Shown here: one piece after another, positions 15,001 to 56,182 of the stretch
Numbering within the stretch: the stretch's first letter is position 1
How the letters are laid out: the number at the start of each line of letters is the position of its first letter
Assembly (NCBI GenBank): GCA_046563655.1
Contig: CM102287.1
Location: 2,666,001-2,730,000 of the forward strand
Direction: 5' to 3'
DNA length: 64,000 bases
Source: Yuukianura sp. NJ FZ-2021
Lineage: Eukaryota
The notes under the pieces: model-generated
Told to the model about the DNA's origin: nothing
What the model saw: only the letters and a program-made list of their open reading frames with translations
The model's database searches: none
Program-made: the position numbers and the translations under genes

Positions 15001-18000
15001 ATGACAATCATCCATCTTCCCACACAGAAAACACGAATCCGTAAACTTACACCGAAAAAACTTCAAAAACGTCAAAAACCGTTGTAAAATGAAACTCATA
15101 GACAATGAAAACCTAAAAAATTGCAATTTCTGCAAGGAAAAACTCAATGAATTTTCCGCGGTCTTAAATCAGGATTAAGAAAACATTTCACTGAATTCGG
15201 TCCCCAAATCAAAACTGAACTTTTTCTATCAAAGCTGAGTTTCAGCGAAGATTTTTTCGATTGGTGGTTAAGCTGTAAGGAAAATTGTTGATTTTAAGCT
15301 ATGTTTCGAGTAAGATGTTAAGTTCAAGTTATGTTTTGAGTAAAAATGTTAGGTTTAAGTTAATTTTTAAGTAAAAATGTGAAGTTTAAGTTATGTTTTT
15401 CCAAAAATGTTAGGTTTTGCTTACTGAAGAAGTGGTTTTTGGTCCTGAGGTAGGCCACTGCGAGTCGTAGGATGGACAGTCGATCCAGTTTGGACAAAAT
15501 GTTTTGTTCAAAGGGCAGAAGGGAGGCGAGCGTATCGAGCTCCGAGTTGAGTCGTTCCCGGTGTCTTTTGGACGGATTGCTCTTCACCACTCCGTCCTTC
15601 GGAGGAGGCTTAATGCTAAAAACACACGAAAACACAAATGATCAACTTCAGTTTCAGTTTTTTGGAATTTGAAATGAGTGTAATAGGTGTACAGTTCCAT
15701 TCATTCCTTCCTGCCTGCCTCAACTAAAAGCGGAAGACCAATTTTCATAAAAGTTAAAGTGCGTCTGGGTTGTTGAGAGAACCGAGTAAGGTTCGACCAA
15801 TTTGGTGAAATTATGCTCTAAAACTATAGTTGACTGACATTGAGGAAATGGTGATTGTTGGACAAGGTACAGAAAGGCACTTGGAATAACAATCCTAACA
15901 ATGTAGCAGTCAAGAAAAGTTTGAACTTCCACAACTTCAGTCTTCCAAGTCCATAATTACGATTTTGAAAACAACAAAAACCGCTTCCTACTTTTCAGTT
16001 TTTAGTTTTCAAAAAAAAAGTATAATTACAAGGGCCACTAATTATTAAGTACCAACAACATCATCTTCAACAGGAAACAAAAATTACAAAAGTTTGCAAA
16101 AAAGAGAAGCCAGAGTTACAAAATTTTGCAGGGAAAAGCAAAATGACAAAATTTCGAAAAGATAAAAAACCGAAAGAAAAAAAAAGTTGCGAAGGTTAGG
16201 AAATTTGTGAACAAAGCACTAATAAGTTGGAAAACAGATGTCGACTATAATTTCGTTCAGCTTTCAAAAATGAATTGAAAATTCGTAAAATTTTGACAAT
16301 TTTGTGTCTTATGCTAAGTTTAATTGTAATTCCAGTTCCAAAAAGAAAGAATTGAGTCATTTTGTGAGATAGTTGCCATAAAAGGATTGTGTTTTTTGGA
16401 ACAAGAGATTCGAGTGTCATAAATTGTGGTGAGGATGCTGCGAGTGGAGGATCTTAATGATAATTTTCCACACCTTGGAGGTGAGTTATGAGCAGTATTT
16501 GATAGTTTCCATTGTACTTGGATACTTGCAAGTATCCAAGTACTTGCAAGTATTCTGGAAGAGGCGGCAGAATTTAAAACAAAAGAAAAGTCTTAATTCA
16601 TTTCCTGGACATGAGTCGTCCGTGGGCGAAAGGCGGAGTCAAGGGAGTGGAGAAAGTCATTCAAACACTCTAATACTCAGTCATCAATTATTCAAACACG
16701 GTTTTCAAAAAACTAAGAAGAAGAACCAATTTTTGAAAAATGTCAACTTTTAGTTTTAAACTCTCCGGAGAACTGAAGAATAAAAAGTTTTCGCTTAAAA
16801 ATTGAACAAAACCGACAGGCCCTTAAGGGCTTTGAAGAATAAGGACACATTTGACTACTTCTTCTGAACATTTTTTAAAAAGTTGTTCAAACAGCACATG
16901 CTTAATTGTTACTTTTGATTTGACTTTGTCTTTGTGCTTGTTAAGGGCTCGTCCCTTAACTAATGAACTTAATTTCTGTTTCTGTTTTTCGGTTAATTTG
17001 GCTCTGTTTTCGGTTGTTTTGTGTGATTGTGTGGTGGATTTATTGAAGTGAGTGACCATTAACCGGATTCCGCTCAACTGTTCTACCGAAGTCCCTCAGA
17101 TTTATGACCCTGCTTTCCAAGTAGTACCCTTAAGGGCATCAGCATAAGGGCACCAGCATCAGTACATCAGCAATTAAAGGGGTCCCCACTTCCACACAAA
17201 TCTAACCAAAGACAATCCAAATCTTGCCGAACTTCAAATATTTAGAGGCGCTGGACACAGATTTCGATCAAAATAGGAAAAACAACAAAAATTTTTCTTC
17301 CAAAGTATTGAAAGGAAAGAAAATTTCAAAAGTTAATCTGACCTTACTACAGGTAGTGGTTTGACCTTTGACCTCAGAAGTTGTTAAGTTTGAAACTAAA
17401 AGTGCAATAAATAATGAAAGTTGTGTTTTCATTGTGATCAGGGGAGAGATGAGAGATGCGATGGAAGATAATGAATAAATCTACTTTTTTAAACAACATT
17501 TTCTAAAGATCTGAAGAAGGAGAGATGCCCTTGCCCCCTGCTGATTCAATCCAAATTAAAATTTCATTGCTTCACTTATATCTCCAACAAAAAATCACTT
17601 TTCATCCAAAAATTGAAAACAAATCAAACTTAAAAAAAATGATCAAGAGCACTGATTTACTCAAAATTAAAAAAATAACCCAGAAACTCACAAAGCTGAG
17701 AACTTGAGAAAATCAAACGCTTCTCGAAAAAAGTAAAGAAAAAATTCAAATTAGAAAGGATTTTCAGCAGTTCTTTGGTGGTTTTACTTGGTGAAAGAAA
17801 AGGAGTAATTTCTTCAAAAAATTCAATTTTTTTTCAAAAAAATTTATTTTCTTTTAATTTTTCTCTTCCGAAACTTTTTTTAAAGTAAAGCACCCAGACG
17901 TTGTGTGGGATCCTCGTTTTTTGTGGTCATGAATAACAGGAGCTTTTGTGTTAGGATGTGATGATGTTGGATTTAGAAGATGCGATCTTTTGGGAAGAAT

Positions 18001-31700: not shown

Positions 31701-31990
31701 AATTTGGATTTGATTGTTGGTAGTTGATGAAAAAAGGAACAATACAAATGACACAAATTCACATCATTATGCAAACTAACAAAAAGTACTACAAGTAATT
31801 GGACAACAATATTTTTCATATTCCGCAGTAGTTTGTACAAATAATAACCATTTTCTACAAACTACTGCGGAAAGTCGAAGAAATTCTAAAACAAAATAAA
31901 ATTCCAAAAAAAGCGAAACGCCAGTTGAAATTTTAATTCTACGAGATATGATAATTCTCATACGGAGAATGACAGTTTTACAGTTGACAG

Positions 31991-32981
31991 CAGAGTTGGC
32001 AAAACATGTTCCCCCACGTTTTCGCGATGTTTTAATGCGCGAAAACTTTTTTAATTGCAGTAATTTTAAATTGCAGAAAACCCCGAGTTTTAAACGGGGT
32101 CTAAGCGTACGTTAACGGAACGTACGCTTGGGTACGCTTTTGGCCGAAGCTGGTACGGCTTAGAAAACTTACGCGTTAGAATGCATGTCCAAGTTATGAA
32201 TCACATTACCAGAACTGTATCAGAATTAGTATTGCATGTAAATTATCTCATTTATTGTCTTCTATGTTGTTTCACAACGTTTTCACTACATGGTAAAATT
32301 GCTTGGATTAACATTGATTTTGTAATCTTTCAAAATAATTGCCAAAAATGAGACCAAAGATAACTTGTATACCTAAAAAAGTAATTCGGTATCCTGTTTC
32401 GAGGAAGAAACAAACAATCAGTCTAACGCTGTTGTGGATTCATACTTCGGTTCGTCAAAAAATCGGTGAGACAAGTGAGTATACCAAAGACTACGATACA
32501 CAATTTATAATGTAAGCGTTTTAGGTTGAGGCAAACTTTAATAACCGTCATTGCCGCCGCACAGTGTAGCCATTCCCCCATTTTTAGTGGCTACACTGGG
32601 AGGCAACTTATGTCGCCACTTTAGGTAAGATTTTTGTAGGTTAAAGCGGCTACTTCAGTTGCCGCCTAGTGCAGTAGTTTTTTAGAAATCATGAAAAATT
32701 AACTTAGGATTCAAAGCCATGCTATTTATTAGCCGAAAGGGCACGTTATATGCGGTAAAAACGAGCCTTGTCAACAAGATAAAGCGTCAAATCTCAAATT
32801 GTCATGATTTTCATAGCATCAGTATTTTTTTTGCGTGGAAATTTCATATACTCTGAAAAAGTTTTCGCGCATTAAAGTAATACGCGAAAACGTTGGGTTT
32901 TTCAAAAATTGGCGGAACATGTTTTACCCGTTTTTACCCAGGGGGGGTAAAACCTGGGGGGGTGGGTAGCTGCCAACTCTG
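31991..32981. mobile_element. Non-autonomous DNA transposon (MITE-like), probably hAT superfamily
   Basis: Terminal inverted repeats CAGAGTTGGCA / TGCCAACTCTG; exact 8-bp target-site duplication GTTGACAG at 31983-31990 and 32982-32989; subterminal inverted blocks (AAAACATGTTCC, ACGTTTTCGCG, TTTAATGCGCGAAAACTTTTT); no transposase ORF. Confidence 0.88.
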
Positions 32982-33477
32982 GTTGACAGTTTTCGTCTGT
33001 GTAATTTTCCTATGTTCTATCCTATTCCTTGTAATGCTTTTTGTGGGAACCAATCGGAATGCGAGAAAATCTTTAGAGTGAAATACTTGCATCTCTCCAA
33101 TCCCAAATTTTTAACTTTTTATGTGGCGTCCACTTCTTTCCAATTTCATAACTTTAGTTTTTCAAAACAAAATCTTGTTCCAAAAACTGAGTGTCAAAAT
33201 TTATGAAAACTAAAACTGTAATGAATGATTACTTTGATGAGGACTGTGAACCATTACGTAATGTGTAATCTGCTTAATGTGGCCTCAATGCTAAACTGTC
33301 ATCCTCTCATACAAGTTGACCTTTGACCTCGACTTTCAAATGGGATTACTGGAAGCCTTCGAAATGTTAAAATCTCCAAAGCTGAGAGCTAAAACAGAAT
33401 CTTTAGTTTTGCATTTCCTAATTTGGCGGAATCTTAAATTTGTCATTGTACTTAAAAAGTTGTGCTAATCTGGAAAA

Positions 33478-34233
33478 ATGTACGGTACAAACATTGACCC
33501 AACGTTGAGCAAAAGTGATTTCTATGCAGAGCTTTTGACCCAGGTCAAGGTCATCATTGATGCAGAACGGAACTGGGTAAAAAATTCAACTTTCTGAACA
33601 TAATCCTAAAAATTTTCGAAAATCTGAATTTCTTTTTTAGTTTTGTTGTACATTTTAAAGGTGACAAATTTGGCCAACGTTTGTTCCTTAATTTACCATG
33701 GGATGAACTCCCTGGATATTTTTCACGACAAACCAATCAATTGGGTTGGATTTTATGTCGGTGACAGAAGTGATTCAACGTTGCTAAGACTTGGACCGTT
33801 CCAGGGCAAGGTCAGGTCAAAGGTCATCCAAAAATTAACTTAAACAAGATCAATTGATTAATCGATTAATTAACAAAGGTCGCATGTAGTCAAATTCGTG
33901 TTGGAAAAGGAGTGTGTGGCACGGCAGCAGCTACGGGTCAAACGCAAGTCGTTTTTGATGTTCATAAATTTCCAGGTCACATCGCATGTGACTCGGGGTC
34001 AAATTCTGAAATTGTTGTACCGATAGTAACAGTCAACGGATCCAAAAACGTGAGAAAATGCAAAAACTTTCCAAAATTTGAAATTTTCGAATTTTGAAAA
34101 TTTTGCAAAATTTCAGAACGTCATTGGAGTGCTGGACATCGACTGTCTGGTGACTGGAGGCTTTGACCTTGAGGACAAACAAGGTCTGGAGTCAATCTGT
34201 GAAGTAATTGCAGCAGGTTGTGATTGGAATTAG
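33478..34233 (+). CDS. msrC: Free methionine-(R)-sulfoxide reductase (fRMsr/MsrC, stand-alone GAF domain), 178 aa
   Basis: Four exons (33478-33576, 33661-33810, 33879-34049, 34117-34233) with three phase-0 GT-AG introns. The protein carries RNWVTNLAN, INWVGFY, LGPFQGKVAC, GKGVCGTAA, DVHKFPGHIACDSGSNSEIVVP and VLDIDC, and ends AAGCDWN*. All three family cysteines are present; AATAAA at 34244-34249. Confidence 0.93.
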
Positions 34234-34334
34234 TAAAGTTTTGAATAAAGGTCACCGTTTAATTCTAAAGGTCACAGCAGCGAAAAAACTAACTTTTTCT
34301 AGTAATGTTTCTAAAAAAATATTTACGTTAGAGG

Positions 34335-36043
34335 TCAACTATCGTTTTCGTTGGCAATTTTAAGCATATCTTCAACCGTCGTGACCTTTGTGCCTGTTTT
34401 GTGTTCGTACTCGGCAATCCTATGATAATCGGCATAAGAAGTTAGTCGTTTCTTCGGTACTAGACTTCGGACGGCTTCCAATCCTGGACGTTCAATGTGA
34501 TTTCTGTCAGAGGTCAAATCGTTCGCAACTTTTTTGCCTACGTCAAAAGCATTTTGCATAGTAGACAAAATTACGCCTCGCGGTCCTTCTGCCACCCATC
34601 CACAGCAGTAGACTCCTGAAAAGTGAAAGTAGAAAGTAAAATTTTTCAAAATTTTGAAAAAAAAAAATTGAGAATTTTGAAAATGAAGATCTTACCGTCC
34701 TGGACTTTTCCGTTATCATTGGGAATGATGCCTCTGGATTCGTCAAACGGAAGTTCCTGGAAGAGTCTCCTGCCTTTGTATCCGACACTTCGAAAAACAC
34801 AGTCACATTCTTCTGTCTCTCTTTGTCCACTGTCAATTGCTCTTTCGGAAGAGTCGAGCTGATTGACCGCGAAGGTCATCTTGTATCTACTGCTTGATCC
34901 TGGCTCAATTTTGAGTGGGGAGCGTAAGAACTTCATGGACAGAACTCTCTCGGCATCAGCGTTGCTGGTTTGATTCTGAGCAGTTTTATACAAAAGTTCT
35001 GTCAAACGTTTCTTCGGACGCGGTAAGCCTGTTATAAATAAACAAAAACGTTTTCTGTACGTTTTGTGAGAAAGTATGTCTATGTCTACTTACTGGCGAT
35101 GAGATTGTCATTGACTTCATGGAAATCAGCTGGATTCAGAGTCATGTTAACTCCGCTCAAGTTCACAAGTTCTCTGAGTTCCTTTATAGTAAAAGCCACT
35201 TGGAGTGGCCCTCTCCGCCCGTAGATGACGACATCCCTGATTCTGGACTTCGATAAAGCTTCTAAAGCGTAAGTACTAATATCAGTTTTCTGGAGGACGT
35301 CGACTGGAGAGAGCAGGATTCGGGCAATATCAAGAGCAACGTTTCCTTGACCAACGATAAAAGCTCTCTCGGAATGCTCTAGATCGATTTTCAAGTTCCG
35401 ATTTTCTGGAAGACCGTTGTACCATCCTACAAAAGCTCGACCTGGAATGACACATTCGTCTTCTCCAGGTATTCCCAACTTTCTGTCCTCCGATGCTCCG
35501 TAACACTGAAATCAACCAGTAATCGATTAGTTTTAAACAATCAATTAGTTTTAAGTAATCAACTGCAGTTACTTCTGCTTACCAAGACGATAGCATTGTA
35601 CGATTGTTGTAGTTGACCAAACGTAATGTCCTTGCCCACTTCAATGTTGCCGATAAACGATACTCTTGGATTCTTGAGGACGTTGGTGAACGTATTGATG
35701 ACATTTTTGACTTCAGGATGATCTGGAGCTACTCCGTATCTCACTAATCCAAAAGGTACTGGTAGTTTTTCATAAATGTCAACGCGGCTATCCTCCAGAC
35801 TCTAAGTAAAAAGGAAAGGTCATGATTAATCGTAAGTCAATTATCAATTACAATTAGTTATACCTTTATGATTTGTTGTGCAGCGTAGAATCCTGCCGGT
35901 CCACTTCCAATTATACAAACATGGTGAGTTCTTCTGGAACTGTTGACGTAGTTGAGTACTGGAAGTGGTTTGGGTTTTGGACAGAATTGAGAGTATAATC
36001 GTTGTATCCAACTACTGGCAGCTACCGGATTGGATCGAGGCAT
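34335..36043 (-). CDS. FDXR: NADPH:adrenodoxin oxidoreductase, mitochondrial (ferredoxin reductase; dare ortholog)
   Basis: Five exons (36043-35864, 35801-35583, 35505-35094, 35028-34696, 34615-34335). Motifs: [11 protein letters not shown] (FAD), [36 protein letters not shown] (NADP), [38 protein letters not shown]; basic N-terminal transit-like peptide. Confidence 0.95.
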
Positions 36044-40579: not shown

Positions 40580-43436
40580 TTATGCTTGGTAGTAGTCTTC
40601 AAATGCATTGGCACGCCAGCCCTTGGTGTATCCATGGGCAGCTCGTTGTTCAGCCAAGAATGTCGTCAGTGGAGCAAAGTATTCTGTGATTGGTGCAGCA
40701 GACATCTTGCTTTGTCCAATCACCTCCAGCAGAAGGTCTTCCCACGTCTTGGAGAATCCAGACTCCAGGATCAGTCTGGAAAAATTCATAAAAAATTCAA
40801 GTTAGCAGAAAGCTAAAATCAGTTTTAGTTTTTCATTTTCGCCAATTATGTTACCTCATTTGGTCTCCAGCTTCAAGATTTCTATAGATGTCGCAGTCGT
40901 GAAGCGGTTTCTCTGGATTTCCAGGCTCATACTGTCCAGCAGTTTCGCAAAGGGATTGATGCAGTTGAAACTGGAGAATGAAGCTCACAAAGTACCTGAA
41001 ATCAAAAACATTTTCAGCTTTAGCGACAATATGTATTCATTTGTCATTTCAAGGAATTATGATGGTGATAACCTCAGCAACTCACCTGATGTACGGTGTG
41101 TTTCCTGAAATTAATTAAGTTCATGATTAATTACTAGGTTAATCAAGCAACTCAACTTTGTGATTATCTTGTGGAGTGGAATGTACCTGGTACATGATAC
41201 TTGGCTCCAGCATCAAAATCAATTTCACTTCGCATCACTGGTGGAACCACGCCTTGGTAATCAGATCTGTATAAGGATAAATCCAGATCATCAGAAATCA
41301 AATATCAAAATGCGATTAGCTTCAAATGAAAGATGGAGATTTTGAAAAATTGGGATTTCCTTGTTAACTTTTGATAGCCTAATGTCAAGTGGCAATTGTT
41401 TTTACTAATCCTTCTGCTTACCTCATTTTGAGCCAATTGTACGTAATGTTTTGCGTTGGAATTGATCCATCAAACAATCCCCAACGATAAGAGTCAATCA
41501 AGTACCCAAACGGCAGAAATGCAACCTAGTAACACAAATACCAACATGAAAATCACAGTTTTCAAAATTTTGAAACTTTCCAAATTGACTTTTACCTTTT
41601 CGAGAGCCATTTTCATGAGATAGTTGAGAGTGGATTCGGTTGATGATTCAGTTGCATTCATGTATCCCAGTTCAACCATGTGCTTAGGAGTTGCAACGCT
41701 GAGAGCAATGACATCTCCAATGGCCTCATGGAATCCAGGATTAGCTCCATCTCTGAAAACAATTGGTTGGTGTTTGTAGTTCAAGAAGTACTGAATGTGG
41801 CCCAGTTCGTGGTGAGCAGTGATGAAGTCCTCCATGTTAACACTCGTACACATTTTGATCCTAGAAGGTCAAAGGTCATGACGATTTTGAAGTTAATTGT
41901 TAATTTAATTAGATTTGAAGCTTCCTTACCTGTAGTCCTCTCCATCGGAAAAGTCCCAGGCAGAAGCGTGACAAACTACTTCTCGGTCGGCTGGCTTCAC
42001 AATCATTGCCTTCTCTCCGTATGACATTCCCATGTCTTCCAGACCAAGCGACACGAAAAACTCGTTACACACGTCAAACATGTCGCTGATTCCCTCTTGA
42101 GTCTCGTTGAATCGCTGCAAGTGAAGATTTTCCAAAATTTAGAATTTCATGAATTTTTGGAAAAGGATTTGAATTTTTGAAAATCTTGCAAAGTGTTGCT
42201 TTACTTCTTTGAGAGCGTCAGTGACATCGAAAACTGGAGCATCCGGAAACGGAACGACGTCGTTGTAGACATGTTCCCAGGTCTGGAAAACATCCAAATT
42301 AATCAGATTAATTAGATTAGTTGTGATTAATTTAGTCAATTTAGAACTTCAGTGACATTTCCTTACCTGTGCCCACATGTTTCCAAGGATACTGGCTGGA
42401 AGTGGCTCACCATCGATGACATGTTCTGGATACTTCGTCTGGAGACGAAAGCGGACGTAGGCGTGGAGTTCGTCGTAGAGATCTTTCACTTCTTGCCACA
42501 ACGTTTCCATGTCGGCCCGGAACGTTTCTGATTCGTACATTCGGATCCAGAAGTCACCCATGTCATCATATCCGTTGAGCCTTGCAGCTTCGTTGGACAG
42601 GTCAATGTATCTGATGTACTGGTCACGCATCAGTTTTCCAGTGTGGTCACGCCACTTTTGCCACACGTACGTCAACTCGTCGTAGTTTGTAGACGTGGCA
42701 ATGATAGCCTCGAGTGCTGTCACAGTTTAAAAGTTGAAGGTTTTCGAAAATTTTAAGAATTTTGGAAATTGATTGTTCAAAAACTTACATGGCTCCAGTG
42801 GAAGTCCTTCGGTTGCGATATCACAGTCTTGGTTGTCGAATGGACAGACTTTAGCCGTTCCATAGATTCCGTTCATTTCAGCCAACAGGAGATTGTACTA
42901 AACAGAGAGATATGAAAATGTTGTACACCGCAAAAGCTTTCTTTACCTTTTGACCTTAGCCTTACCTCTTGCAAGTGATCTTCTGGAAGGGCAGCAGTTC
43001 CAATGGCATTGAGAAACTTCAGTTGACGTCTGACTAAACTGTCTTCTGGAAATGACTCCCAGTCGTACATGCTAAAGTTGGCTTCCCATTCAGCATAGAT
43101 GAAATTGGCATATGCGATGTTGGCAGCAGTACTGGCTTCTTCCTTTGTAGCGTTGAGCAAGTCAGTGTTGTACTCCCAATCAGCAGTCACTACTTTGTTG
43201 AGCTCGGCAGAAGCTGTTGGCTCGTAGTAGTTTTCCAAGTAATCTTTAGCTTGGGCTTCACATACCGCTGGATCTGAAATCGTTTTGAAAACGTTTAGTG
43301 TAAAAAAAAGTCAAAAGTTTTGAGTATAGTTTTTGAAAATGTCACCTCCAGTGCACAGAAGCTTCGCTTTCGGTTTGGCCAAGGCCGCTCCTAGACACAA
43401 AGTGATCAAAAGTAGGACTGCTACGTACTTTACCAT
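40580..43436 (-). CDS. ACE: Angiotensin-converting enzyme (peptidase M2), single-domain secreted Ance/Acer-like
   Basis: About 12 exons. Signal peptide [43 protein letters not shown], zinc motif [42 protein letters not shown] (via a 19-nt micro-exon at 41104-41086); stop at 40582-40580. Confidence 0.95.
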
Positions 43437-44173: not shown

Positions 44174-47118
44174 TCATGCAAGCCACCTAGTCTTATTTGT
44201 TACCAAAAAGACAAGTATTAAAGCCCATTTTAAATCGTTTTGCAAAACGTAAGCAGCACTTTTGGATTTTCCAGCAAAACTGGAATCGAAATTAATAGGA
44301 TTTTGAAATTGAGGCTGAGGAGTTGTACTTGTAGCAGTAATTGTTGAAATGTCAGTTTGGAGACATGCTGTTACCACTGCTGGATCCAGCATGGTAAGAC
44401 TCTTCAGAAGTTCATCAATCGTGTGATTCAATGTCCGAGCAGCAGAGCACTGATGATCCGCAGTGAATGTTTCAGAAAAACAGCTCCGATATATCGACAT
44501 TGCTCTAAAAAATCGTTTTTTTTTTCAAAAATTTAGGTATAAGAAATCATGAGTTTAAAAGTGTCAGGGTTGCGAACCTGCAAAAATTTCGGTTTTGTTT
44601 CAATGAAAAATCAGGGTCGAACTGCAGGTAAATTGGGTTTACACACACTTGAAATTTTGGAAAAATTGGGTCTCCACATTCTTGTACCTCAAATCCACTG
44701 GAAATCAGTACTGGAATTTCAAAAACAAACATATCGATATCATCAATTGAGTAAAAATTTGAAAAAAAAAACATTTGAAAACTTTACAATTGAGCGTGTC
44801 TTTGCTTGAACAGAGTTGTTTAGCAGCCAGTACAGCTACGTAGCCTTCAGGAGCATTTCGTTCGATGAGGTCAAAGTAACCTTCGACGCAGTTCAGCGCC
44901 AGCGACAATTCGGCACACAGTTGCATCATGTCAGATTTTAACAAGGATTCCGAAACATTCACACTGAAAACCGGAACTGAAAATGTCAAATTCCGACATC
45001 TCTCAGCATCCATGATCTGTAAATTCGAAAACAGAAATTTTCAAACTAAAAAAAGATAATACAATCCAAAGAAACCTTATTTTAGACTAATCGTGGCTAC
45101 TTCCAAAAGTATAGTGTAGAAACTTAGAAAGTGTGATGATGTTTTAAACCAATATTTTGGAATTTTTAAATTTCTTATAAATTAGGAAAATGGACTTTAG
45201 TGAAATTGTTAGTCTAATCCCGACTTTTTCCAAAAGTCCTTCTCCAGAAAGTTAGAAGGTGTGATGGTGTTTTCAAAAAACAATATTTTGGAATTTTTAA
45301 ATTTCTCATAAATTAGGAAAATGGACTTTAGTGAAATTGTTAGTCTAATCCCGACTTTTTCCAAAAGTCCTTCTCCAGAAAGTTAGAAGGTGTGATGGTG
45401 TTTTCAAAAAACAATATTTTGGAATTTTTAAATTTCTCATAAATTAGGAAAATGGACTTTAGTGAAATTGTTAGCCTAATCTAATAAAACGAAAAGAAAT
45501 AACTGTAGAAACATTTGAATAAGGTGACTCACAAATCCACTGATCTCTGGCCGTAAGGAGGATGAGTGGACGTAATTTTCTAAAAACTCTGCCAAAATTG
45601 ACTTGAATGTTAAAGTAAACAGTGGAACTCGATCAGATTGACCCATTGACCTTGATTCCAGAACTGTCACTGGTGGCAAATAGCTGAGTTTTGGCTGATC
45701 CCGTGACGTGCAGGTCATAACTCTTCTCACTTCGCGTACCATTGAGGTCAACAAATGCTCTGGAGCAATCCTTCCACATTTTTTGGTAATTGACAAACAA
45801 TTAATTACAAAGTCCAGGATCCTAAAAGTTAAAAAATTCGAACTTTAAAACAGTCATTTCATTTTGAAGCCAACTCATTGTTACTCCAACTGAGCCTTAC
45901 GGTATTCACTTTTTAGAAATTTTTAAACTTTTTTTGAAAAAGTGTTAACTTACACACAGATACTTGTCGGATGATTGTTCAAACTTGAAACTTTTTCTGA
46001 AATGCAATTTCCAATTTGTTCTCCGAATTCTTCCAGACACTGGAGCCCTCCCTCCGTAATGAACACTTCCGATTTTGAAAAAAAATTGAATCATTCATTA
46101 GAACTTTAGTTTTAATTGACACTTTTGTTCAACTTTTACTTCAATCTTGTTTTTAAATTTTGAACTAAATTATTGAAAATCTTAAATGAAATTAGAAGCA
46201 GGTTGGACGCCACATAAAAAGTTAAAAGTTTGAAATGGGAAAGATGCATGTAATAAACCCTAACTATTTTCTCGCATTCCGATTGGCTCCCAAAGAAAGC
46301 ATTATGAGAGATAGGGAATCAGATAGGAAAAATACACAGGAGAAAACTTTCATCTCAACTCTCACTCTCCACATGATAATTCCCCTATCTCAAAAAATTA
46401 AAATTTCAACTGGAGTTTTGCTAAACAATTTCTTTTAAATAAGAAATCCTTAAAATTAAATTGTTAATAAATACAACAAATTAGTTTATCTTAGTAGTGT
46501 TAGATTATTGTTAGGCTAACAATGGTTAGTTGAGTTAGTTAATTGTAAGTTAGATTAGTTAATTAATTAGTAGCGGTTGATGAAGCAGAGGATTCCATTA
46601 CATGCAGCATTTGTGCCATCATTGTCTTTTCCACAGAAGAACTGGACAACCGACTCCATGCCAGTGACGAGTTGATTTCTCGTGGATTGACCCCAACATT
46701 GCTCCACTGCTTGCAGTCCCCCGTCCATGCATGACCTCATCTGGGGCCACCGGACACAAATGTTGCGAAATACAACACCCAAGTCCCCCCGGGGAATGGC
46801 ACTCCTGATCTCAGCCATCAAGTCAGTCCCATTGAACATCTCAGACACACAGGAAGTCATGTTTTCCTAAAGAACATTAAGGATTAGTGAAATTTTGAAT
46901 TGACCGTTGACCTATGACCTCACTGTGGCCAGTTCCAGATCCATTGTAAAGTTCTGCTGACATGTTTGTTGAACTTGGACTAAGAAATCTTCCAATGTTT
47001 CTGGAGCAGAGAGTGGAAGTATTTCCAATTCCGTGACCTCAGTCTCGTTTTGTGCTGGAAATTGTTCTGCGACGACGCTGATCAGCGACAGCGTTAAGGT
47101 TAGGATGAATTGACGCAT
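44174..47118 (-). CDS. 27-kDa hemolymph glycoprotein (DUF1397)-like protein with a second Cys-rich module and hydrophobic C-terminus, ~517 aa
   Basis: Seven phase-compatible exons (47118-46924, 46866-46602, 46065-45954, 45821-45533, 45016-44788, 44710-44578, 44504-44174). Signal peptide MRQFILTLTLSLISVVA; EIRSAIPRGDLGVVFRNIC and LFITEGGLQC resemble DUF1397 motifs; ends KWALILVFLVTNKTRWLA*. Confidence 0.75.
45082..45480. repeat. Minisatellite, 131-bp unit x3, inside intron 4 of the DUF1397-like gene
   Basis: Units start at ~45082, 45209 and 45340, with a partial unit at 45471. Copies 2 and 3 look identical; copy 1 is diverged. Confidence 0.92.
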
Positions 47119-47119
47119 G

Positions 47120-47704
47120 TGAAATGGGTGGATGAATGCGATCAATTTGTCAAGTTAGGTTACTAATTCTTTTGCTGCTACCACAAAAACGACTGTCCAG
47201 ATTCTGAAATCCTTTTGCACACTTAAGGCGTCTATATTAAGGGATGTGTCAAGAACTTTGTAGCTTTCTTGCTGGTCCAGGTTTAAAACTATAGACGATT
47301 TTGAGTTGCTTTATTGTTGCCACTTTCCAAGGAGGAGGACACAATTAAGGCAAAAACTAATACTTAACTCGAGAGAGAAAAGACTTACAACAATAGTAGG
47401 ATCGAGTGACCACTACTGGCGAGAAAACAATAGGCTCAAGTGAGCGAGAGAGAAAGAAGCTACTGCAGCGAGTGCTGGAGAGAGACTTAGACTTGAAACT
47501 AAAACTAGGATTTGAGGCGATTCCGCCTCCACTGATCGCCCTTGAGAATGGCCACGTCACCTCCGGTGAGGATGACACCTCGTCCTCTCTCAAGGTGATG
47601 AGCGGAGTCGGAAGACCGTTAAGAGTACTAATGTACTTAAACCAAAAGTAGAGGTCACACAAAGAGGAAGGGAGATTGGAGAATCTCCACTTGATTCCTC
47701 AACA
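47120..47704 (-). repeat. 3' LTR of the BEL/Pao element
   Basis: Direct repeat of 53416-54000 (offset 6296). I saw no differences by eye, and the ORF track gives identical peptides for both copies. Confidence 0.97.
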
Positions 47705-47997
47705 TTCTGCCCCCATTGAGCGATGAGCTCAATCAAGGAATCAAAACGTTATGGAATCAGACGTCAAGTGTCATGGAGATTCACCAACTCATATGAAAGG
47801 ATAGCTCTATACCTATAGATAGGCCTATACTAGATAATAAAGAAATTAAATTTTTGTGCAAATTTTAACGAATTACTCTGGCGAAAAACTACCATCGATT
47901 TTCGTGAAACTTTACAGTAATGTAGCTTGAGGGGTCTAGTATGTGAAAATTAACGCGTTCCATTGGGGGTCAAGGAAAGATACATTTTTACCCTAAC

Positions 47998-50900
47998 TTA
48001 ATCTGTTGGTTGAAGAAGTGGGGCAATCTTCGAAATGGGGCGTTGAAGGGTCCCAGTGGCTGTCTTCAGGGTGACGACTCGAACTAGACCATCACTGCCG
48101 GGGTGAGTTTCGGTGATCCTTGCCAATTTCCACTTGAGAGGAGGAAGCTGTTCGTCTCGGATCAGCACCAAGTCTCCAACCTGCACATTGGCCGTCTGCT
48201 TCTTCCATTTGTAGCGTTGCTGCAATGAGGTCAAGTACTCCGCACTCCAACGTCGCCAGAAATGCTGGAACATCTGGGTGACATGCTGCCATCTCGTCAG
48301 CCGGTTGACTCGCTGCTGGGTGACATCGTCTTCGGGAAGAGCGGTAAGTGGCTGCCCAATCAGCAAATGACCTGGGGTCAGCACGTTGTGGTCCAGTGGA
48401 TCATTGGAGAGAGCACACAGCGGTCTAGAGTTGAGAGCGGCCTCGACTTGACAGAGCAACGTCCAGAATTCTTCGAGGGTGAGGGTGCTTTGACCAACGA
48501 CGCGACGAAGATGGTACTTAGCACTCTTCACTCCAGCTTCCCAAAGTCCACCTTGGTGAGGCGCTCCTGGTGGAATGAAGTGCCATCGAATCGACTTGTC
48601 TGTCAGGTAGTGGTGAATTTCGTCCTTCCGTGCGATGTCCAAAAATTCACGAAGTTCCCGCTCGGCCCCCACGAAGTTTGTTCCATTGTCGGAATGGATA
48701 TCAGATGGAATTCCGCGACGGGAGACAAACCGACGGAGCGCTGCTAAGAATGCTGGGGTGGAGAGTTCGGTGACTGGCTCAAGATGAACTGCCTTGGAGG
48801 AGAAACAGACGAAGAGACACATGTAGGCCTTGAACTGCTTCTTGCCTCTGCCTTTGGTGACTTGAATGGTGTAAGGACCAGCAAAATCCACTCCCACGAC
48901 TTGGAATCCACGGGAAGGGGTGACTCGGGCAGAAGGAAGAGATCCCATAAGTTGGTTGACCTTGTCAGCTCGAAATCTTCGGCATACTACGCATCTTCGG
49001 ATGATTGTACGAATGACATTTCGAGCACGAGGAATCCAGTACTTCCTGCGGAGCTCAGCCCAAAGTAGTTGAAATCCCGCATGAAGTAAGTCCGAGTGCA
49101 GATCTTCGACAATCAGCTTCGTGACGTGATGATGTGCGGGAAGAATGATTTGATGTTTAGTGGTGTCGCTCAGAGCCGAATGCTGGAGTCTGCCCCCGAC
49201 TCGGAGTAACCCCGTTTTCTTGTCCACAAATGGATTCAACGCTAAGAGGGTGCTGGAGTGAGAAATCTCATTCTGCTGTTCCAACTGGTTGAATTCAGTG
49301 TTGTAGGACTCTCCTTGTGCTTGGCGGATGATGATGAGCAGTGCCCATCGCAATTCTGGAATGGTGAGGTGACCGGTCAATCGCTTGTCCTTTGGTTTAC
49401 TGGAATTCCTGGCGAATCTGAGCACAAAGGCAACAACACGATTGAGAATCTTGAGTTTTGAAAAGCGTGTAGCGATGAAGAATGACATCGTAGGCCGTGA
49501 GGTAACGAAATGGATTCGTTTCTTCTCCTCAAAGACCTTGGATGAGATCTCCTTCTGTGGTGTCTGGAACAATGCTGTGGTGTGGAGCTTGAGCCACTGT
49601 GGTCCTTCCCACCACAGGTCATGGTTCAGAAGTTCTGCCGCTGTGACCCCACGTGAAGCACAGTCGGCTGGATTCAGCGCAGAGGGAACGTATCTCCATG
49701 ATTCCGTTGGGATGATTTCCTGGATAACTGCAATCCGGTTAGCGACGAAAGTCTCGAAGCGTCTGGATTGGCAGCTTATCCAGCGAAGTACGATTTCGGA
49801 GTCGGTCCAGGTGTGGATCTTGACATCGGCACAGAGGGTGGTTTTGACAGCGTTGATCAGCTTAGAAAGGAGCAAGGCGCTGCACAGTTCGAGCCGAGGA
49901 ATTGAAAGATTCTTGTTTGGGGCCACCTTGGTCTTTGATGCGACAAGGCGGACGACAGTATGACCATCAGCTCCAGTGCTCCGCATGTAGACGACAGCAG
50001 CGTAAGCCTTGCTGGAGGCATCGCAGAATCCATGGAATTCAGCAATTGAAGGTTGTGACGCAGGCAAGATACATCTTGGAATGGCTGCCCTTGTGATGTC
50101 CTTCAGTCCGTCCAAGTATTGGAACCATTCTTCCAACATCAGTTCTGGAATCTCGTCATCCCAGTCGAGCACGAACTCTCCGTTGTCGGAAGGAACTGGA
50201 AACCACAGCCGTTGAAAGAATAACTTGACGGTGATGGTCAATGGAGATAGGAACCCGAGAGGGTCGAATACTCTTGACATCTCGGAGAGGACATGTCGCT
50301 TGGTGACCTTGGATGTTGTCTCAGGGAGAAAGCCAGTGAAGAGGAAAGAGTCCTTGGTGGCGTCCCAGGAGATTCCAAGCACTTTCTGAAGTGTAGAGGC
50401 TGAGCTTTCAATTGTGCTGTTCCTCTCCCTCATGGTGGCTGGGATGTGCTCCAGCACTGCATTGGAGTTGGAGTCCCACTTCCGGAGTTCCAGTTTGGCA
50501 GAATCAGTTAAGGCGGTGAGTTGCTTCTGGACTTCAACAGCTTCTTCTGTCGTGGGGTATGAAGATAAGAAGTCATCTACGTAGTAGTTGCTTCGAAGGG
50601 CCTTTGCTCCGAGTGGATACTTCGCTCCTTCATCTTCTGCCAGTTGAAGTAGACAGCGTGTTGCAGTATGAGGTGCGGATGAGGTCCCATAAGTCACAGT
50701 GGTGAGCTCGTACGCTTGAATTGGAAGGCTCGGGTCTTCTCGCCACAGGATTCGGAGGAAACTGCAGTCTTCGTCATGGACTCTGAATTGGCGGTACATC
50801 TTTGTGATATCCGCTTTCAGTGCAACAGGGTGACGTCTGAAGCCCAGGAGAATGTCGAAGAGGTCTGGTTGCACTTTGGGTCCCACCATCAATGTTGAGT

Positions 50901-53328
50901 TGAAAGAGATTCCATTTGATGTCTGAGCGGAAGCGTCAAAAACAACACGAAGTTTTGTGGTGGAGCTGTCTTCTTTGATAACGAAATGGTGGGGAATGTA
51001 GTTGGTTCTCCCACGAATCTCGAAATCAGTTGAAGACGGAATCTTCCTCATGTGGCCAAGAGACTCGTACTGTCGCATGAAGTCAATGTACTCCGGCTTC
51101 TTCTCTGGAAACTTCTCAAGTCGACGTTCCAGACTGAAGAGACGGCGTTCTGTAATGTCGCGAGACGCTCCGAGGATCTTGGGATCACGTTTGAAAGGAA
51201 GCCTAGTGACATACCTTCCATCCGTGTCACGTGCAATCGTAGATGTAAAATGGTCTTCGGCCTTTCTTTCTTCTTCAGTCCAGTTGACAGCATGGGGAAC
51301 TTCCTCTAACTCCCAGAACCGCTTGACAATATCCAATGTGTCCAAATGTGAGACTTGATGAACTCTGACGACATTGACCTGAGCATGTTGTTCTGAGACT
51401 GAGCCACCAATGATCCATCCTAGGCGAGTGCTGAGAGCAGAAGGAGTTCCTGGTGGGCCATCAACCTTCTTTCCAGTGACCAAGGTGAAGAAGCAGGAAA
51501 CATCAAGAATCATGTCCACTTCTCCTGGTGTGTTGAAGTTTGGATCAGCCAAGGGAAGTCTCTTGAGGTGGATCCAAGTTGAAGTGTCCAATGGATGGTC
51601 AGGTTGAGGGGTCGTGACCTTTGGCATGATGAGAGCAGCAACAGAGAATTGATAAGCTCCATCATGTGAAGTCAAGGAGACTGTTGTCACTCCCTTGCTC
51701 TGGCCAACGTACGTGTCACCAACACCGTAGATATGTGGTTCGTTTCTGGATCGAGGTAATCCAAGTCGACGAACACAAGCTTCACTGATAAGATTGCCTT
51801 GAGCTCCAGAATCCAAGAAGACACGAACCCAGGAATCAGTTCCGTGCTTATTCTTGGCCTTGACCATGGCAGTGGCCAGCAGAGGTCGAGAAGAAGATAA
51901 GCCGCTGATGATGGCCGAGTTGATGGTGGCAGGAGCTGAAGAGGCTTCTGGAAGGAATGCAGTGCCACCAGGAACAAATGAAGAGGTGATTGGAGGTGGA
52001 GCAGTGTTGTATGACGGAGAGCCCTTGGAACCCCTCTGACTGTCATGCAACAGGGAATGATGTTTCTTCTGACACTGGCGGCACCGAGATGTCGAATTGC
52101 ATTCCTTTGTAAAGTGAGCAGGAGAAAGGCATGAGTAGCAGAGACGCTTCTGGGTGACCAGCTTCTGACGATCAGCAACTGTTTGTTGATTGAAGTCAGG
52201 GCACTTGTAGATAGGGTGCCTTTCCTTGCCACAACAGACGCAGTTCTTAGACGTAGGATGACCTTCAGTGACATGATGCACACGATGATTATCAGAACGA
52301 CGAGGGTTGCCCTTGGAGATAGACTGAAGGCTGCGGATTCTGACCTCCAAGAAGTCCGTCAAGTCCTTGAACTTTGGCATCTTGTTGTCAGCAGGAAGGA
52401 CTTTGCCCCACTCCTTTCGAGTCTCCATGTCCAGCTTCTCAAGAACGAGATAAACGAGAAGGTCGTCCCAATCGTCTACCTTTCTTTTGAGGACCTTGAG
52501 TGACCTCAAAGCTTCTGTCACCGTGTCGATAAGGCGTTGGAGAGACGTGGCACTGTCAGAGGTCACTGACTTGGCGTCAGCAATCCGTCGAATCAAAGAA
52601 AGAACAATTTCGCGAGTGTTTTCATACCTCTTTATGACCTCCTGCCACGCCTCCTCAAACTGACCCTCAGCTACAGCATAATTCCGGATTTGCAGAGCAG
52701 CGTCTCCTTTCAATGACGATTTGAGGTATGACATCTTAAACACACTGCTGAGGTCATCGTTGTTCACAACAATAGCGGAAAACAAGTCACGAAAGCTCAC
52801 CCAGTCCTCATGCTTTCCATCAAATGTCGGCAAATCAACTTTTGGCAACTTCACAGAGGGCGTTTTAGAAGCACCAGTCACTGACGAGTTCAAAACACTG
52901 GTATTGTTCATAGAAGCTGGTGGAAGTGAAGCTCTGGCGGCTGCTTCCGCTTTGGCAGCGGTTTCTTCCAACAACCCTTTGGCCGTAAACAATGCACGAA
53001 AACAAGAAGTAATTATTTCCTGACCTTTACTGATGGTGGATTTGCAATCTGCGAGTGCAGCGTCATCCTTGATGACTGACATTGCCAAAAGTACCTCCCT
53101 CTCCCAAGATGAGAACTTGTTCTTCAGATCAGTGATCAGCATTTCTTTGAGAGGAACATCAACTGACACTACCTTTTTCCAATCCTTGAACTCCTTGTTG
53201 TAGCAGTCTTGGATCTGGTCAAAGGTCGCTTTGAGTCCAAACTGAGCCCACTCGAACAGCACTGGTGGTTCTTGAAGTTGACCTTCAGATGTCCCTGACC
53301 CGCTCATGGATTTCTTCTGTGTCGCCAT
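47998..53328 (-). CDS. BEL/Pao gag-pol polyprotein, 1776 aa
   Basis: Uninterrupted ORF with Gag (LPKVDLPTFDG..W..F; three Cys/His knuckles), protease (VFLDSGA), RT (KLRVVFDAS, ADITKMYRQ, YVDD), RNase H (FCDASSKAY, IPRLELC) and integrase (HHCC, GVDFAGP, SDNGTNF, GGLWE). The PR-RT-RH-IN order and motifs are typical of BEL/Pao. Confidence 0.98.
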   Translation of the reverse strand: MATQKKSMSGSGTSEGQLQEPPVLFEWAQFGLKATFDQIQDCYNKEFKDWKKVVSVDVPLKEMLITDLKNKFSSWEREVLLAMSVIKDDAALADCKSTISKGQEIITSCFRALFTAKGLLEETAAKAEAAARASLPPASMNNTSVLNSSVTGASKTPSVKLPKVDLPTFDGKHEDWVSFRDLFSAIVVNNDDLSSVFKMSYLKSSLKGDAALQIRNYAVAEGQFEEAWQEVIKRYENTREIVLSLIRRIADAKSVTSDSATSLQRLIDTVTEALRSLKVLKRKVDDWDDLLVYLVLEKLDMETRKEWGKVLPADNKMPKFKDLTDFLEVRIRSLQSISKGNPRRSDNHRVHHVTEGHPTSKNCVCCGKERHPIYKCPDFNQQTVADRQKLVTQKRLCYSCLSPAHFTKECNSTSRCRQCQKKHHSLLHDSQRGSKGSPSYNTAPPPITSSFVPGGTAFLPEASSAPATINSAIISGLSSSRPLLATAMVKAKNKHGTDSWVRVFLDSGAQGNLISEACVRRLGLPRSRNEPHIYGVGDTYVGQSKGVTTVSLTSHDGAYQFSVAALIMPKVTTPQPDHPLDTSTWIHLKRLPLADPNFNTPGEVDMILDVSCFFTLVTGKKVDGPPGTPSALSTRLGWIIGGSVSEQHAQVNVVRVHQVSHLDTLDIVKRFWELEEVPHAVNWTEEERKAEDHFTSTIARDTDGRYVTRLPFKRDPKILGASRDITERRLFSLERRLEKFPEKKPEYIDFMRQYESLGHMRKIPSSTDFEIRGRTNYIPHHFVIKEDSSTTKLRVVFDASAQTSNGISFNSTLMVGPKVQPDLFDILLGFRRHPVALKADITKMYRQFRVHDEDCSFLRILWREDPSLPIQAYELTTVTYGTSSAPHTATRCLLQLAEDEGAKYPLGAKALRSNYYVDDFLSSYPTTEEAVEVQKQLTALTDSAKLELRKWDSNSNAVLEHIPATMRERNSTIESSASTLQKVLGISWDATKDSFLFTGFLPETTSKVTKRHVLSEMSRVFDPLGFLSPLTITVKLFFQRLWFPVPSDNGEFVLDWDDEIPELMLEEWFQYLDGLKDITRAAIPRCILPASQPSIAEFHGFCDASSKAYAAVVYMRSTGADGHTVVRLVASKTKVAPNKNLSIPRLELCSALLLSKLINAVKTTLCADVKIHTWTDSEIVLRWISCQSRRFETFVANRIAVIQEIIPTESWRYVPSALNPADCASRGVTAAELLNHDLWWEGPQWLKLHTTALFQTPQKEISSKVFEEKKRIHFVTSRPTMSFFIATRFSKLKILNRVVAFVLRFARNSSKPKDKRLTGHLTIPELRWALLIIIRQAQGESYNTEFNQLEQQNEISHSSTLLALNPFVDKKTGLLRVGGRLQHSALSDTTKHQIILPAHHHVTKLIVEDLHSDLLHAGFQLLWAELRRKYWIPRARNVIRTIIRRCVVCRRFRADKVNQLMGSLPSARVTPSRGFQVVGVDFAGPYTIQVTKGRGKKQFKAYMCLFVCFSSKAVHLEPVTELSTPAFLAALRRFVSRRGIPSDIHSDNGTNFVGAERELREFLDIARKDEIHHYLTDKSIRWHFIPPGAPHQGGLWEAGVKSAKYHLRRVVGQSTLTLEEFWTLLCQVEAALNSRPLCALSNDPLDHNVLTPGHLLIGQPLTALPEDDVTQQRVNRLTRWQHVTQMFQHFWRRWSAEYLTSLQQRYKWKKQTANVQVGDLVLIRDEQLPPLKWKLARITETHPGSDGLVRVVTLKTATGTLQRPISKIAPLLQPTD

Positions 53329-53402
53329 TTTGGTTTGACGAACTTTCAGTTATTGTCACACACTTTTCACACCCTTTGAAGTAGTTTCGGGAGAGTTCCC
53401 GG

Positions 53403-53414
53403 CGTTGGGCGCCA
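53403..53414 (-). other. Primer-binding site of the retrotransposon (tRNA-Lys type)
   Basis: TGGCGCCCAACG on the minus strand, 1 nt after the 5' LTR; it matches the first 12 nt of the known tRNA-Lys(1,2)-type PBS. Confidence 0.8.
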
Positions 53415-53415
53415 A

Positions 53416-54000
53416 TGAAATGGGTGGATGAATGCGATCAATTTGTCAAGTTAGGTTACTAATTCTTTTGCTGCTACCACAAAAACGACTGTCCAGATTC
53501 TGAAATCCTTTTGCACACTTAAGGCGTCTATATTAAGGGATGTGTCAAGAACTTTGTAGCTTTCTTGCTGGTCCAGGTTTAAAACTATAGACGATTTTGA
53601 GTTGCTTTATTGTTGCCACTTTCCAAGGAGGAGGACACAATTAAGGCAAAAACTAATACTTAACTCGAGAGAGAAAAGACTTACAACAATAGTAGGATCG
53701 AGTGACCACTACTGGCGAGAAAACAATAGGCTCAAGTGAGCGAGAGAGAAAGAAGCTACTGCAGCGAGTGCTGGAGAGAGACTTAGACTTGAAACTAAAA
53801 CTAGGATTTGAGGCGATTCCGCCTCCACTGATCGCCCTTGAGAATGGCCACGTCACCTCCGGTGAGGATGACACCTCGTCCTCTCTCAAGGTGATGAGCG
53901 GAGTCGGAAGACCGTTAAGAGTACTAATGTACTTAAACCAAAAGTAGAGGTCACACAAAGAGGAAGGGAGATTGGAGAATCTCCACTTGATTCCTCAACA
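53416..54000 (-). repeat. 5' LTR of the BEL/Pao element
   Basis: TG...CA termini; direct repeat of 47120-47704; followed by the TSD GCATG. Confidence 0.97.
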
Positions 54001-55016: not shown

Positions 55017-56182
55017 ATGAGGTAAGAACTTAACAGATAAACAGACATAGAAATCGGTTGCAAAAACATGGATGGAAGGAATTGAAACTTAGAAACTTAG
55101 TTCTCTAAAAAATGAAGACTTGAACAATTCAAAGGTCATGAGGTGAAGTTCTTAATTTGTGATTTATTTGATGTTTTCAGTAAGGTGACGAAGGATATGT
55201 TGTTCGAGTGTGTCAACGCTCTGCTGGTAGCGTCCAAGGACAAGAAGCGCAAGTTCACGGAGACAGTGGAACTCCAGATTGGACTCAAGAACTACGATCC
55301 ACAAAAGGACAAGCGTTTCAGCGGAACTGTCAAGTAAATCCACCAACATTTGAGCCAGCCTGTGGTCACCCCAATACTCATGACCTCCACCCAGGGTCAC
55401 TAAAACAACTGGGAAGGTGGTCATCATGACGAAAGTCATGATACTGCCGATATAGCTTACTCTTTTTTACGCAATTACTTTAGCTATACTTGCAGCATTT
55501 GGTGAGTTGCTATCTGGGCGATTCCCGGTCGCTGTTCCTGAGTCTCTAGCTCCTTGCGCGGTAATTGCATAAATTAGGACATCTATTAACCTAAATTTTT
55601 AACTTTTAGATTGAAGCACATCCCGAAGGCTAAAACTCGCATCTGTGTTCTCGGAGATCAGCAGCATTGTGACGAAGCCAATGCCAACAATATTCCTTGC
55701 ATGGACGTCGAGGCTTTGAAGAAGCTCAACAAGAACAAGAAGGCTATCAAGAAATTGGGTAACTACTAAGCAAATCAATTGACTAAGTTTCAATTACTAA
55801 TTGATATTTTGATTTAAAACTTGTTTTGAATTTCCCAGCCAAGAAGTACGATGCGTTTTTGGCCAGTGAAGCCCTGATCAAGCAGATTCCGAGACTGTTG
55901 GGTCCTGGTCTGAACAAGGCCGGCAAGTTCCCACTTCTTCTCTCCCACCAGGAGTCAATGGTCAACAAGATCGATGAAGTCAAGGCCACGATCAAGTTCC
56001 AGATGAAGAAGGTCTTGTGTCTCTGTGTGGCTATTGGACATGTTGACATGAGTGCTGATGAGTTGGCCCAAAACGTTCACACTGCTGTCAACTTCTTGGT
56101 GTCTCTTCTGAAGAAGCACTGGCAAAACGTTCGGTCTCTCCACATCAAGTCAACCATGGGCCCACCTCAACGACTTTACTAA
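55017..56182 (+). CDS. RpL10A: 60S ribosomal protein L10a (uL1)
   Basis: Exons 55017-55021, 55181-55333, 55610-55758, 55839-56182. [76 protein letters not shown]. Confidence 0.98.

Follow-up and report, generated by a model that had tools for sequence, protein, structure and literature searches.

A four-exon GAF-domain gene and its predicted enzyme

The window analysed here (the whole 64,000-nucleotide stretch of contig CM102287.1, positions 2,666,001 to 2,730,000, from Yuukianura sp. NJ FZ-2021) carries on its forward strand a gene for a predicted single-GAF-domain, cytosolic-type free methionine-R-sulfoxide reductase (fRMsr), a known family of enzymes, here in a host lineage where it was not expected. 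Its features are listed below in window positions. Residue equivalences come from alignment to the Saccharomyces cerevisiae enzyme (PDB 1F5M), the cysteine roles are those in the accessible text of Hage et al. (bioRxiv 10.1101/2021.02.26.433065), and P0003 and P0360 are two relatives described further on.

33478..34233, + strand: fRMsr gene, four exons and three introns; ATG at 33478, TAG at 34231-34233
33478..33576, + strand: exon 1, 33 codons from the ATG; aligns from residue 1 onward with the N-termini of P0003 and P0360
33577..33660, + strand: intron 1, 84 nucleotides (nt), GT..AG, phase 0, GC 0.21
33661..33810, + strand: exon 2, 50 codons; Trp61, Tyr65, Pro79 and Gly82, equivalent to yeast W66, Y70, P84 and G87
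33811..33878, + strand: intron 2, 68 nt, GT..AG, phase 0
33879..34049, + strand: exon 3, 57 codons; Cys86, Cys96, His117-Ile-Ala-Cys120-Asp121, Glu127 and Val129
33885..33887, + strand: codon of the predicted resolving Cys86 (yeast Cys91)
33915..33917, + strand: codon of the predicted resolving Cys96 (yeast Cys101)
33987..33989, + strand: codon of Cys120 of HIACD, the predicted catalytic cysteine (yeast Cys125)
34050..34116, + strand: intron 3, 67 nt, GT..AG, phase 0; contains an AT-rich motif common to host introns
34117..34233, + strand: exon 4, 38 codons and TAG; Asp147 and Asp149, equivalent to yeast D149 and D151; terminal CDW
34244..34249, + strand: AATAAA poly(A) signal, 11 nt past the fRMsr stop

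The coding sequence amounts to 537 nt over the four exons, giving 178 amino acids (aa) and a stop; an in-frame stop lies three codons 5' of the ATG, and the introns have a GC content of 0.21-0.28 compared to 0.45 for the exons. An earlier note, made from the letters of this DNA only, had described a complete 178-aa protein with three phase-0 introns and a poly(A) signal, and the gene model (33478-34233, with AATAAA at 34244) agrees with it on each count.

Searched singly against yeast fRMsr (1F5M), exon 2 matched yeast residues 43-88 (E 3.6e-8), exon 3 residues 89-142 (E 4.8e-19) and exon 4 residues 144-177 (E 3.8e-4), the three thus covering the yeast protein in collinear order, and exon 1 on its own gave no database match. 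The similarity of the window protein to yeast fRMsr lies well beyond chance. With Pfam, exon 3 alone scored 21.1 bits for GAF, under the cutoff of 22.4, and exons 1, 2 and 4 taken singly gave nothing; the close relative P0003 reached 41 bits for GAF_2 (cutoff 28.6), also passed the GAF cutoff and matched 1F5M at E 1.2e-50. NCBIfam assigned no family to P0003, P0360 or window exon 3, and a protein atlas returned one large eukaryotic, mostly ascomycete, GAF cluster together with bacterial clusters.

The window protein contains each of the motifs VAC, GVCG, HIACD, RNWVTNLAN, DIDC and terminal CDW. According to the accessible text of Hage et al., a fungal fRMsr is defined by a catalytic Cys125 within H[I/V]XCD and by resolving Cys91 and Cys101, with Trp66, Tyr70, Glu132, Asp149, Asp151, Pro84, Gly87, His122 and Val134 strictly conserved. 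All 12 of these residues are kept in the window protein: the three cysteines that the earlier note had picked out are Cys86 (VAC), Cys96 (GVCG) and Cys120 (HIACD, aligned to yeast residues 122-126), the substrate-binding set is Trp61, Tyr65, Glu127, Asp147 and Asp149 (yeast Trp66, Tyr70, Glu132, Asp149 and Asp151), and Pro79, Gly82, His117 and Val129 correspond to yeast Pro84, Gly87, His122 and Val134. The fungal look of some motifs, also remarked on in that note, holds as well, with DIDC found in yeast and Mucoromycota and CDW in a Mortierellales sequence.

Since the 12 defining residues are all present, the chemistry is, by homology, likely to be that of fRMsr. As in the yeast and bacterial enzymes, Cys120 of HIACD would attack free L-methionine-R-sulfoxide bound by Trp61, Tyr65, Glu127, Asp147 and Asp149; methionine would leave as Cys120 turns into a sulfenic acid, which Cys86 and/or Cys96 would resolve to a disulfide, and thioredoxin would then reduce the disulfide.

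Host genome, linkage and expression

The gene immediately downstream lies on the opposite strand and converges on fRMsr, with 101 nt from stop to stop:

34335..35935, - strand: FDXR (NADPH:adrenodoxin oxidoreductase), five tblastn segments, 34356-35935

In a first search FDXR had best identities of 62-69% to animals and fungi alike. In a FastTree tree of 112 rows (the window protein and 111 of the 120 listed matches, those of 380-560 aa), it was sister to FDXR of the springtail Allacma fusca (SH-like support 100; 59% identity, 398 columns), the pair falling inside a 65-row clade with all named animals (support 100) and apart from fungi. As the tree held one springtail only, 'springtail' here means the closest among those sampled, and the host is most likely an arthropod, a springtail or close kin.

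The fRMsr gene matches its surroundings in composition and structure. Its GC content at third codon positions is 0.433, compared to 0.355-0.608 in nine neighbouring coding pieces and 0.416 in FDXR, and its introns of 67-84 nt compare to 68-155 nt for ten introns of neighbouring genes, delimited by joints in sequencing run X3. A 15-nt AT-rich, near-palindromic motif occurs at 10 sites in the window (at most one mismatch) against 0.56 expected, namely in fRMsr intron 3 (34090-34104), in an FDXR intron (34639-34653) and at 8 other sites, all of them intronic or non-coding; the AT-palindromic, host-like character that the earlier note had seen in the introns is therefore borne out by a motif common to intron 3 and the FDXR intron. 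In contigs built from short reads, the same 15-nt motif yields false skips from the fRMsr intron to the FDXR intron (34105 to 34648).

The fRMsr gene is present, introns included, in Logan contigs of run X2 (33382-33758 and 33818-34179). A 416-nt contig of run X5, from another study and another organism, covers 33984-34401; it begins in exon 3, continues across intron 3, exon 4 and the 3' flank and reaches the last FDXR exon, with 14 differences and 2 gaps relative to the window. Directly 5' of fRMsr, 31806-33407 is a high-copy repeat with a contig depth of thousands (runs X1 and X2), compared to ~200-350 elsewhere, and with several loose ends and an opposite-strand joint inside it. Contamination or a chimeric assembly, in which a fungal fragment would have been joined into an arthropod contig, could draw on this repeat, as assemblies can break at such a flank, and on the best non-animal matches being fungal. 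Against it, fRMsr and FDXR are bridged by the contig from a different study and are adjacent in another species (record L001, below), FDXR is of animal type, and composition and intron motif match the host. We hence regard contamination as very unlikely, its probability being close to nil, and the view of the earlier note that arthropod flanks speak against it stands, given the animal-type flanking genes and the X5 contig joining fRMsr to FDXR.

Besides FDXR and a ZNF380-type gene, the window contains the following genes:

980-1225 and 15363-15641, - strand: AhR/spineless-type bHLH-PAS gene, 15363-15641 being the bHLH exon (Pfam HLH; best PDB matches AhR, E 4e-22)
40583-43310, - strand: ACE (Peptidase_M2), by Pfam
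46570-46866, - strand: DUF1397 gene, by Pfam; a family that we take to be of insects and other arthropods
55116-56179, + strand: RPL10a (Ribosomal_L1), by Pfam
58257-62002, - strand: putative histone-deacetylase-like gene, from a reading of translated frames only; Pfam gave nothing on two of its exons

A BEL/Pao-type long-terminal-repeat (LTR) retroelement occupies 47120-53994 on the minus strand, with an uninterrupted 1783-aa frame (48001-53349) bearing a Pao peptidase, an integrase and DUF1759/DUF5641. Its direct repeats (47120-47419 and 53416-53715) have 100% identity for 300 nt or more, so that it looks like a recent insertion, and its local GC content is 0.47-0.52 compared to 0.38 for the window.

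Evidence bearing on expression comes from run X3, labelled 'DNA?', in which ten intron-sized CT..AC skips were found between 36821 and 42966, in ACE and in the gene at 36.8-37.1 kb (minus strand). With these intron-sized skips and zero depth across most upstream intergenic bins, X3 behaves like cDNA, and its depth is 18.4 and 5.7 in the two bins containing fRMsr, which is only a hint that the window gene is expressed. The X3 skips also provide experimental intron coordinates for genes neighbouring fRMsr.

These data bear on whether the gene, though real, might no longer encode a free methionine-R-sulfoxide reductase and be instead a ligand-binding GAF protein or a silent relic. None of the runs covering the stretch is recorded as RNA, and both splicing and reductase activity are only inferred for the window, as this explanation would allow. 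Nevertheless, the frame is open with 12 of 12 defining residues in place, the catalytic residues are kept in four animal-like sequences at 32-46% divergence (below), the relative L001 occurs as an intron-free contig resembling cDNA, and part of the bins holding fRMsr have coverage in run X3, which resembles cDNA; we consider such a loss of function unlikely.

Relatives, trees and origin

HMMER was run exhaustively against 1.84 billion representatives at 50% clustering (which hides members >50% identical to their representative); 5443 proteins reached E <= 1e-3, and 160 of them E <= 1e-30. The top representative, P0360, is a protein of the springtail Orchesella dallaii (CAL8109177.1) encoded on a 4.3-Mb contig, and the 30 representatives looked up among the 150 listed comprised 1 springtail, 18 fungi, 2 protists (Gregarina and Blastocystis) and 9 without a taxon label. 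Exon 3 used alone gave mostly bacterial matches, as expected of the most conserved part of the protein, but its best match was P0003 (88% identical over exon 3), a 184-aa protein from a 956-bp Logan contig that is 67.8% identical to the window protein overall. With P0003 as query in a word-indexed search, all organism names in the first 26 rows below P0003 itself were fungal, with Mucoromycota at 52-59% identity, and no animal was named among the 120 matches listed; this search also missed P0360, and its silence on animals is thus weak evidence. The window protein is 57-59% identical to Mucorales proteins over 171-174 residues (Circinella minor, Fennellomyces sp. and Lichtheimia hyalospora), 54% identical to P0360 and ~51-55% identical to its budding-yeast matches.

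Among the other matches, P0009 and P0059 (460-470 aa) have an N-terminal fRMsr-type GAF domain fused to a TIP41-like domain (PF04176), an architecture of which we know no example in the fRMsr literature.

Two further relatives reflect the organization of the window locus. The alignment of P0427 (217 aa, from a 909-bp contig) with the window protein is broken at three points: the P0427 N-terminus is unrelated up to exactly the window exon 1/2 boundary, a 27-aa insert sits exactly at the exon 2/3 boundary and another insert lies around the exon 3/4 boundary, as would result from a prokaryotic gene caller reading through short stop-free introns at the same positions. L001, a 1327-bp metagenome record 96% identical to P0003, has an uninterrupted fRMsr frame whose product is 66.5% identical to the window protein and, 120 nt past its stop and on the opposite strand, an uninterrupted frame corresponding to window FDXR exons 5 and 4 (70% and 62%), without the intron that separates these exons in the window. 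The simplest explanation for two intron-free genes in L001 is that the contig derives from overlapping convergent transcripts, and the adjacency indicates that the tail-to-tail fRMsr-FDXR arrangement is conserved in two species with a third of difference between their fRMsr proteins. None of the catalytic and binding residues is lost from the four animal-like sequences (window, P0003, P0427 and P0360), despite 32-46% divergence. The gene would accordingly be orthologous across several springtail-like lineages, which appear to have its intron positions and the tail-to-tail FDXR neighbour in common. The earlier note had proposed a candidate horizontal transfer in this genome; an intact, intron-bearing fRMsr in an arthropod is indeed what we find, but it is not confined to this genome, as P0360, P0003, P0427 and L001 show, and the existence of a springtail protein and further relatives points to a lineage-conserved gene rather than to a single recent acquisition.

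In a first FastTree tree (367 rows; proteins <130 or >330 aa left out), the window protein grouped with P0003 (support 90), then with P0427 (79) and then with P0360 (60), inside a Mucoromycota group (70). IQ-TREE analysis of 55 chosen rows (the four animal-like sequences, 40 fungi and 11 bacteria; 184 columns) again united the window protein with P0003 (99/93), and in the approximately unbiased (AU) test a single clade of the four animal-like rows was not rejected (p 0.381). When 2 protists and 4 more early fungi were added and one long bacterial row was dropped, a quick tree had a branch with a Shimodaira-Hasegawa-like approximate likelihood ratio (SH-aLRT) support of 91 that separated the animal-like rows plus the non-chytrid fungi from chytrids and bacteria. 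Together, the trees lean towards nesting within fungi, without proof. In the same quick tree, fRMsr of Gregarina niphandrodes fell inside ascomycetes (SH-aLRT 99) on a very long branch, which may be an artefact or another eukaryote-to-eukaryote transfer.

The most economical account, and one we hold to be reasonably probable, is that of a resident fRMsr derived from a single old transfer into the ancestor of springtail-like lineages. A fungus, or a eukaryote resembling one, would have passed the gene a single time to an early ancestor of the lineage, and the gene would later have acquired introns and a composition like those of the host. Transfer is favoured chiefly by distribution, since only springtail-like records carry fRMsr among animals in the searches made. 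In a more specific form, which we put forward tentatively as somewhat short of an even chance, a working springtail fRMsr would have stood beside FDXR since before the deep splits of springtails, having been acquired once from an early-diverging fungus, possibly in the form of genomic DNA that already bore an intron at RNW|V (the window exon 1/2 boundary).

Inserts of 15-45 aa at, or one codon past, this RNW|V boundary were observed in the fungal models P0143, P0369, P0511 and P0455, which include Spinellus fusiger and two Penicillium species; these inserts may represent introns that were left unspliced, at a common position.

Several points weigh against a single transfer from fungi. P0360 is the sole named animal relative, the origin of P0003, P0427 and L001 being deduced from gene structure and synteny, and further animal homologues may have been missed, given the 50% clustering and a word-indexed search that overlooked P0360. 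The FDXR tree sampled one springtail, two insects and no crustaceans, and none of the 15 X3 joints listed, of 62, falls at an fRMsr intron. In the IQ-TREE phylogeny the eukaryotic backbone is a polytomy, and Orchesella pairs with Smittium (94/88), itself on a long branch (1.2), and not with the window protein. Lastly, a tree with the 40 fungi as a clade excluding the animal-like rows was not rejected by the AU test (p 0.128, log-likelihood difference 11.5), and nesting inside fungi is hence not demonstrated. The phylogeny that the earlier note had called for thus upheld it in that the nearest non-animal relatives are fungal, but the polytomy and the AU result did not bear out nesting among non-animals.

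The last of these results would also suit vertical retention from an opisthokont or animal ancestor, with fRMsr kept in springtails and lost independently in nearly all other animals. The possibility of uniting all four animal-like rows in a single clade is likewise compatible with it, as is the age of the gene in the host lineage, with introns and synteny conserved at ~66% protein identity, and the fungal inserts at or beside the intron-1 position (33/34 in Spinellus, 34/35 in Penicillium) could reflect an ancient intron. Retention would nonetheless require very many parallel losses, and against it stand a single animal among the 30 representatives looked up, no animal name among the 120 matches listed in the P0003 search and surveys that, in the portions available, describe fRMsr as lost in metazoa (PMC5798039) or as present in 'a few insects' only (Hage et al.). 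It is further at odds with a window protein as close to Mucorales as to Orchesella, and with the SH-aLRT 91 branch joining animal-like rows and non-chytrid fungi. On balance we find retention rather unlikely.

Alternatively, fungal fRMsr genes could have been transferred several times independently into different soil arthropods, which would account for the Orchesella-Smittium pair in the IQ-TREE phylogeny, which requires 2 changes for the four animal-like rows, and for animal-like sequences that diverge from one another as much as from fungi. Such repeated transfers are difficult to reconcile with the three intron positions that the window gene and P0427 have in common, or with the tail-to-tail FDXR neighbour common to the window and L001. 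As a single animal-like clade is also compatible with the AU test, and the Smittium branch is long, we judge repeated transfers to be distinctly unlikely, and retain a single old transfer into the springtail-like ancestor as the favoured account.

Previous descriptions and comparison with known systems

This enzyme family has a well-described structure and mechanism, and the Orchesella protein is at NCBI as a GAF-domain product without the fRMsr name. What is new is an intron-bearing, host-adapted, FDXR-linked fRMsr gene whose structure and position are conserved across divergent springtail-like genomes. The earlier note had considered this activity undescribed in metazoans. The available text of PMC5798039 does describe fRMsr as lost in metazoa, and invokes its absence for the build-up of free methionine-R-sulfoxide in mammals, but one sentence in that of the Hage et al. 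preprint mentions 'a few insects' carrying fRMsr, judged not to be conserved in any lineage. In the literature searched, fRMsr and insects occurred together in Hage et al. only and no link between fRMsr and springtails was found, although Table S1 of Hage et al. or the supplements of a compendium of horizontal gene transfers (PMC13342648) may already list some.

Many foreign genes are reported from springtails in the accessible parts of the genome papers on Folsomia candida and Orchesella cincta. Two supplementary files of the F. candida paper had no GAF and no sulfoxide entry; in one of the two supplementary files of the O. cincta paper (PMC4987106), GAF occurred only for phosphodiesterases and the sulfoxide entries were of MsrA type. 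Supplementary file 2 of PMC4987106 gives bacterial MsrA as the best match of Ocin01_07140, and a second springtail gene for methionine-sulfoxide repair may therefore be of foreign origin.

If springtails as a lineage do carry a working fRMsr acquired once in this way, they would be the only known animals to reduce free methionine-R-sulfoxide efficiently. Yeast fRMsr expressed in Drosophila raised oxidative-stress resistance and lengthened lifespan in a way that depended on methionine, according to the available text of PMC5798039, and a conserved, syntenic fRMsr in soil hexapods would be the natural animal counterpart of these transgenic flies. With such a gene, the proposed springtail repertoire of foreign genes would gain a redox-repair enzyme, and the statement, in the text of Hage et al. 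at hand, that the few hexapod occurrences lack lineage conservation would be corrected.

Compared to known systems, the window protein resembles in architecture the S. cerevisiae enzyme (YKL069W; PDB 1F5M and 3KO6), a single GAF domain of 180 aa, compared to 178 in the window, with the HIACD catalytic cysteine, both resolving cysteines, the W, Y, E, D, D, P, G, H and V residues and DIDC; the window gene differs in its animal host, its three introns and a 4-residue indel within the loop that precedes INW. Bacterial fRMsr (E. coli YebR/MsrC, PDB 1VHM; 3MMH and 3KSF) belongs to the same family and has the same cysteine triad region but is more distant (E 4e-38 with P0003) and lacks introns, and E. 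coli 1VHM has DIDS where the window protein has DIDC. The Mucoromycota enzymes are the closest non-animal sequences and have RNWVTNLAN and DIDC in common with the window protein, Actinomortierella also having the terminal CDW, but they show no supported sister relation to the window gene. The GAF domain-containing protein of O. dallaii, from an animal and 177 aa long, has the same N-terminus, catalytic residues and terminal CDW, yet is just 54% identical to the window protein and has DIDD in place of DIDC.

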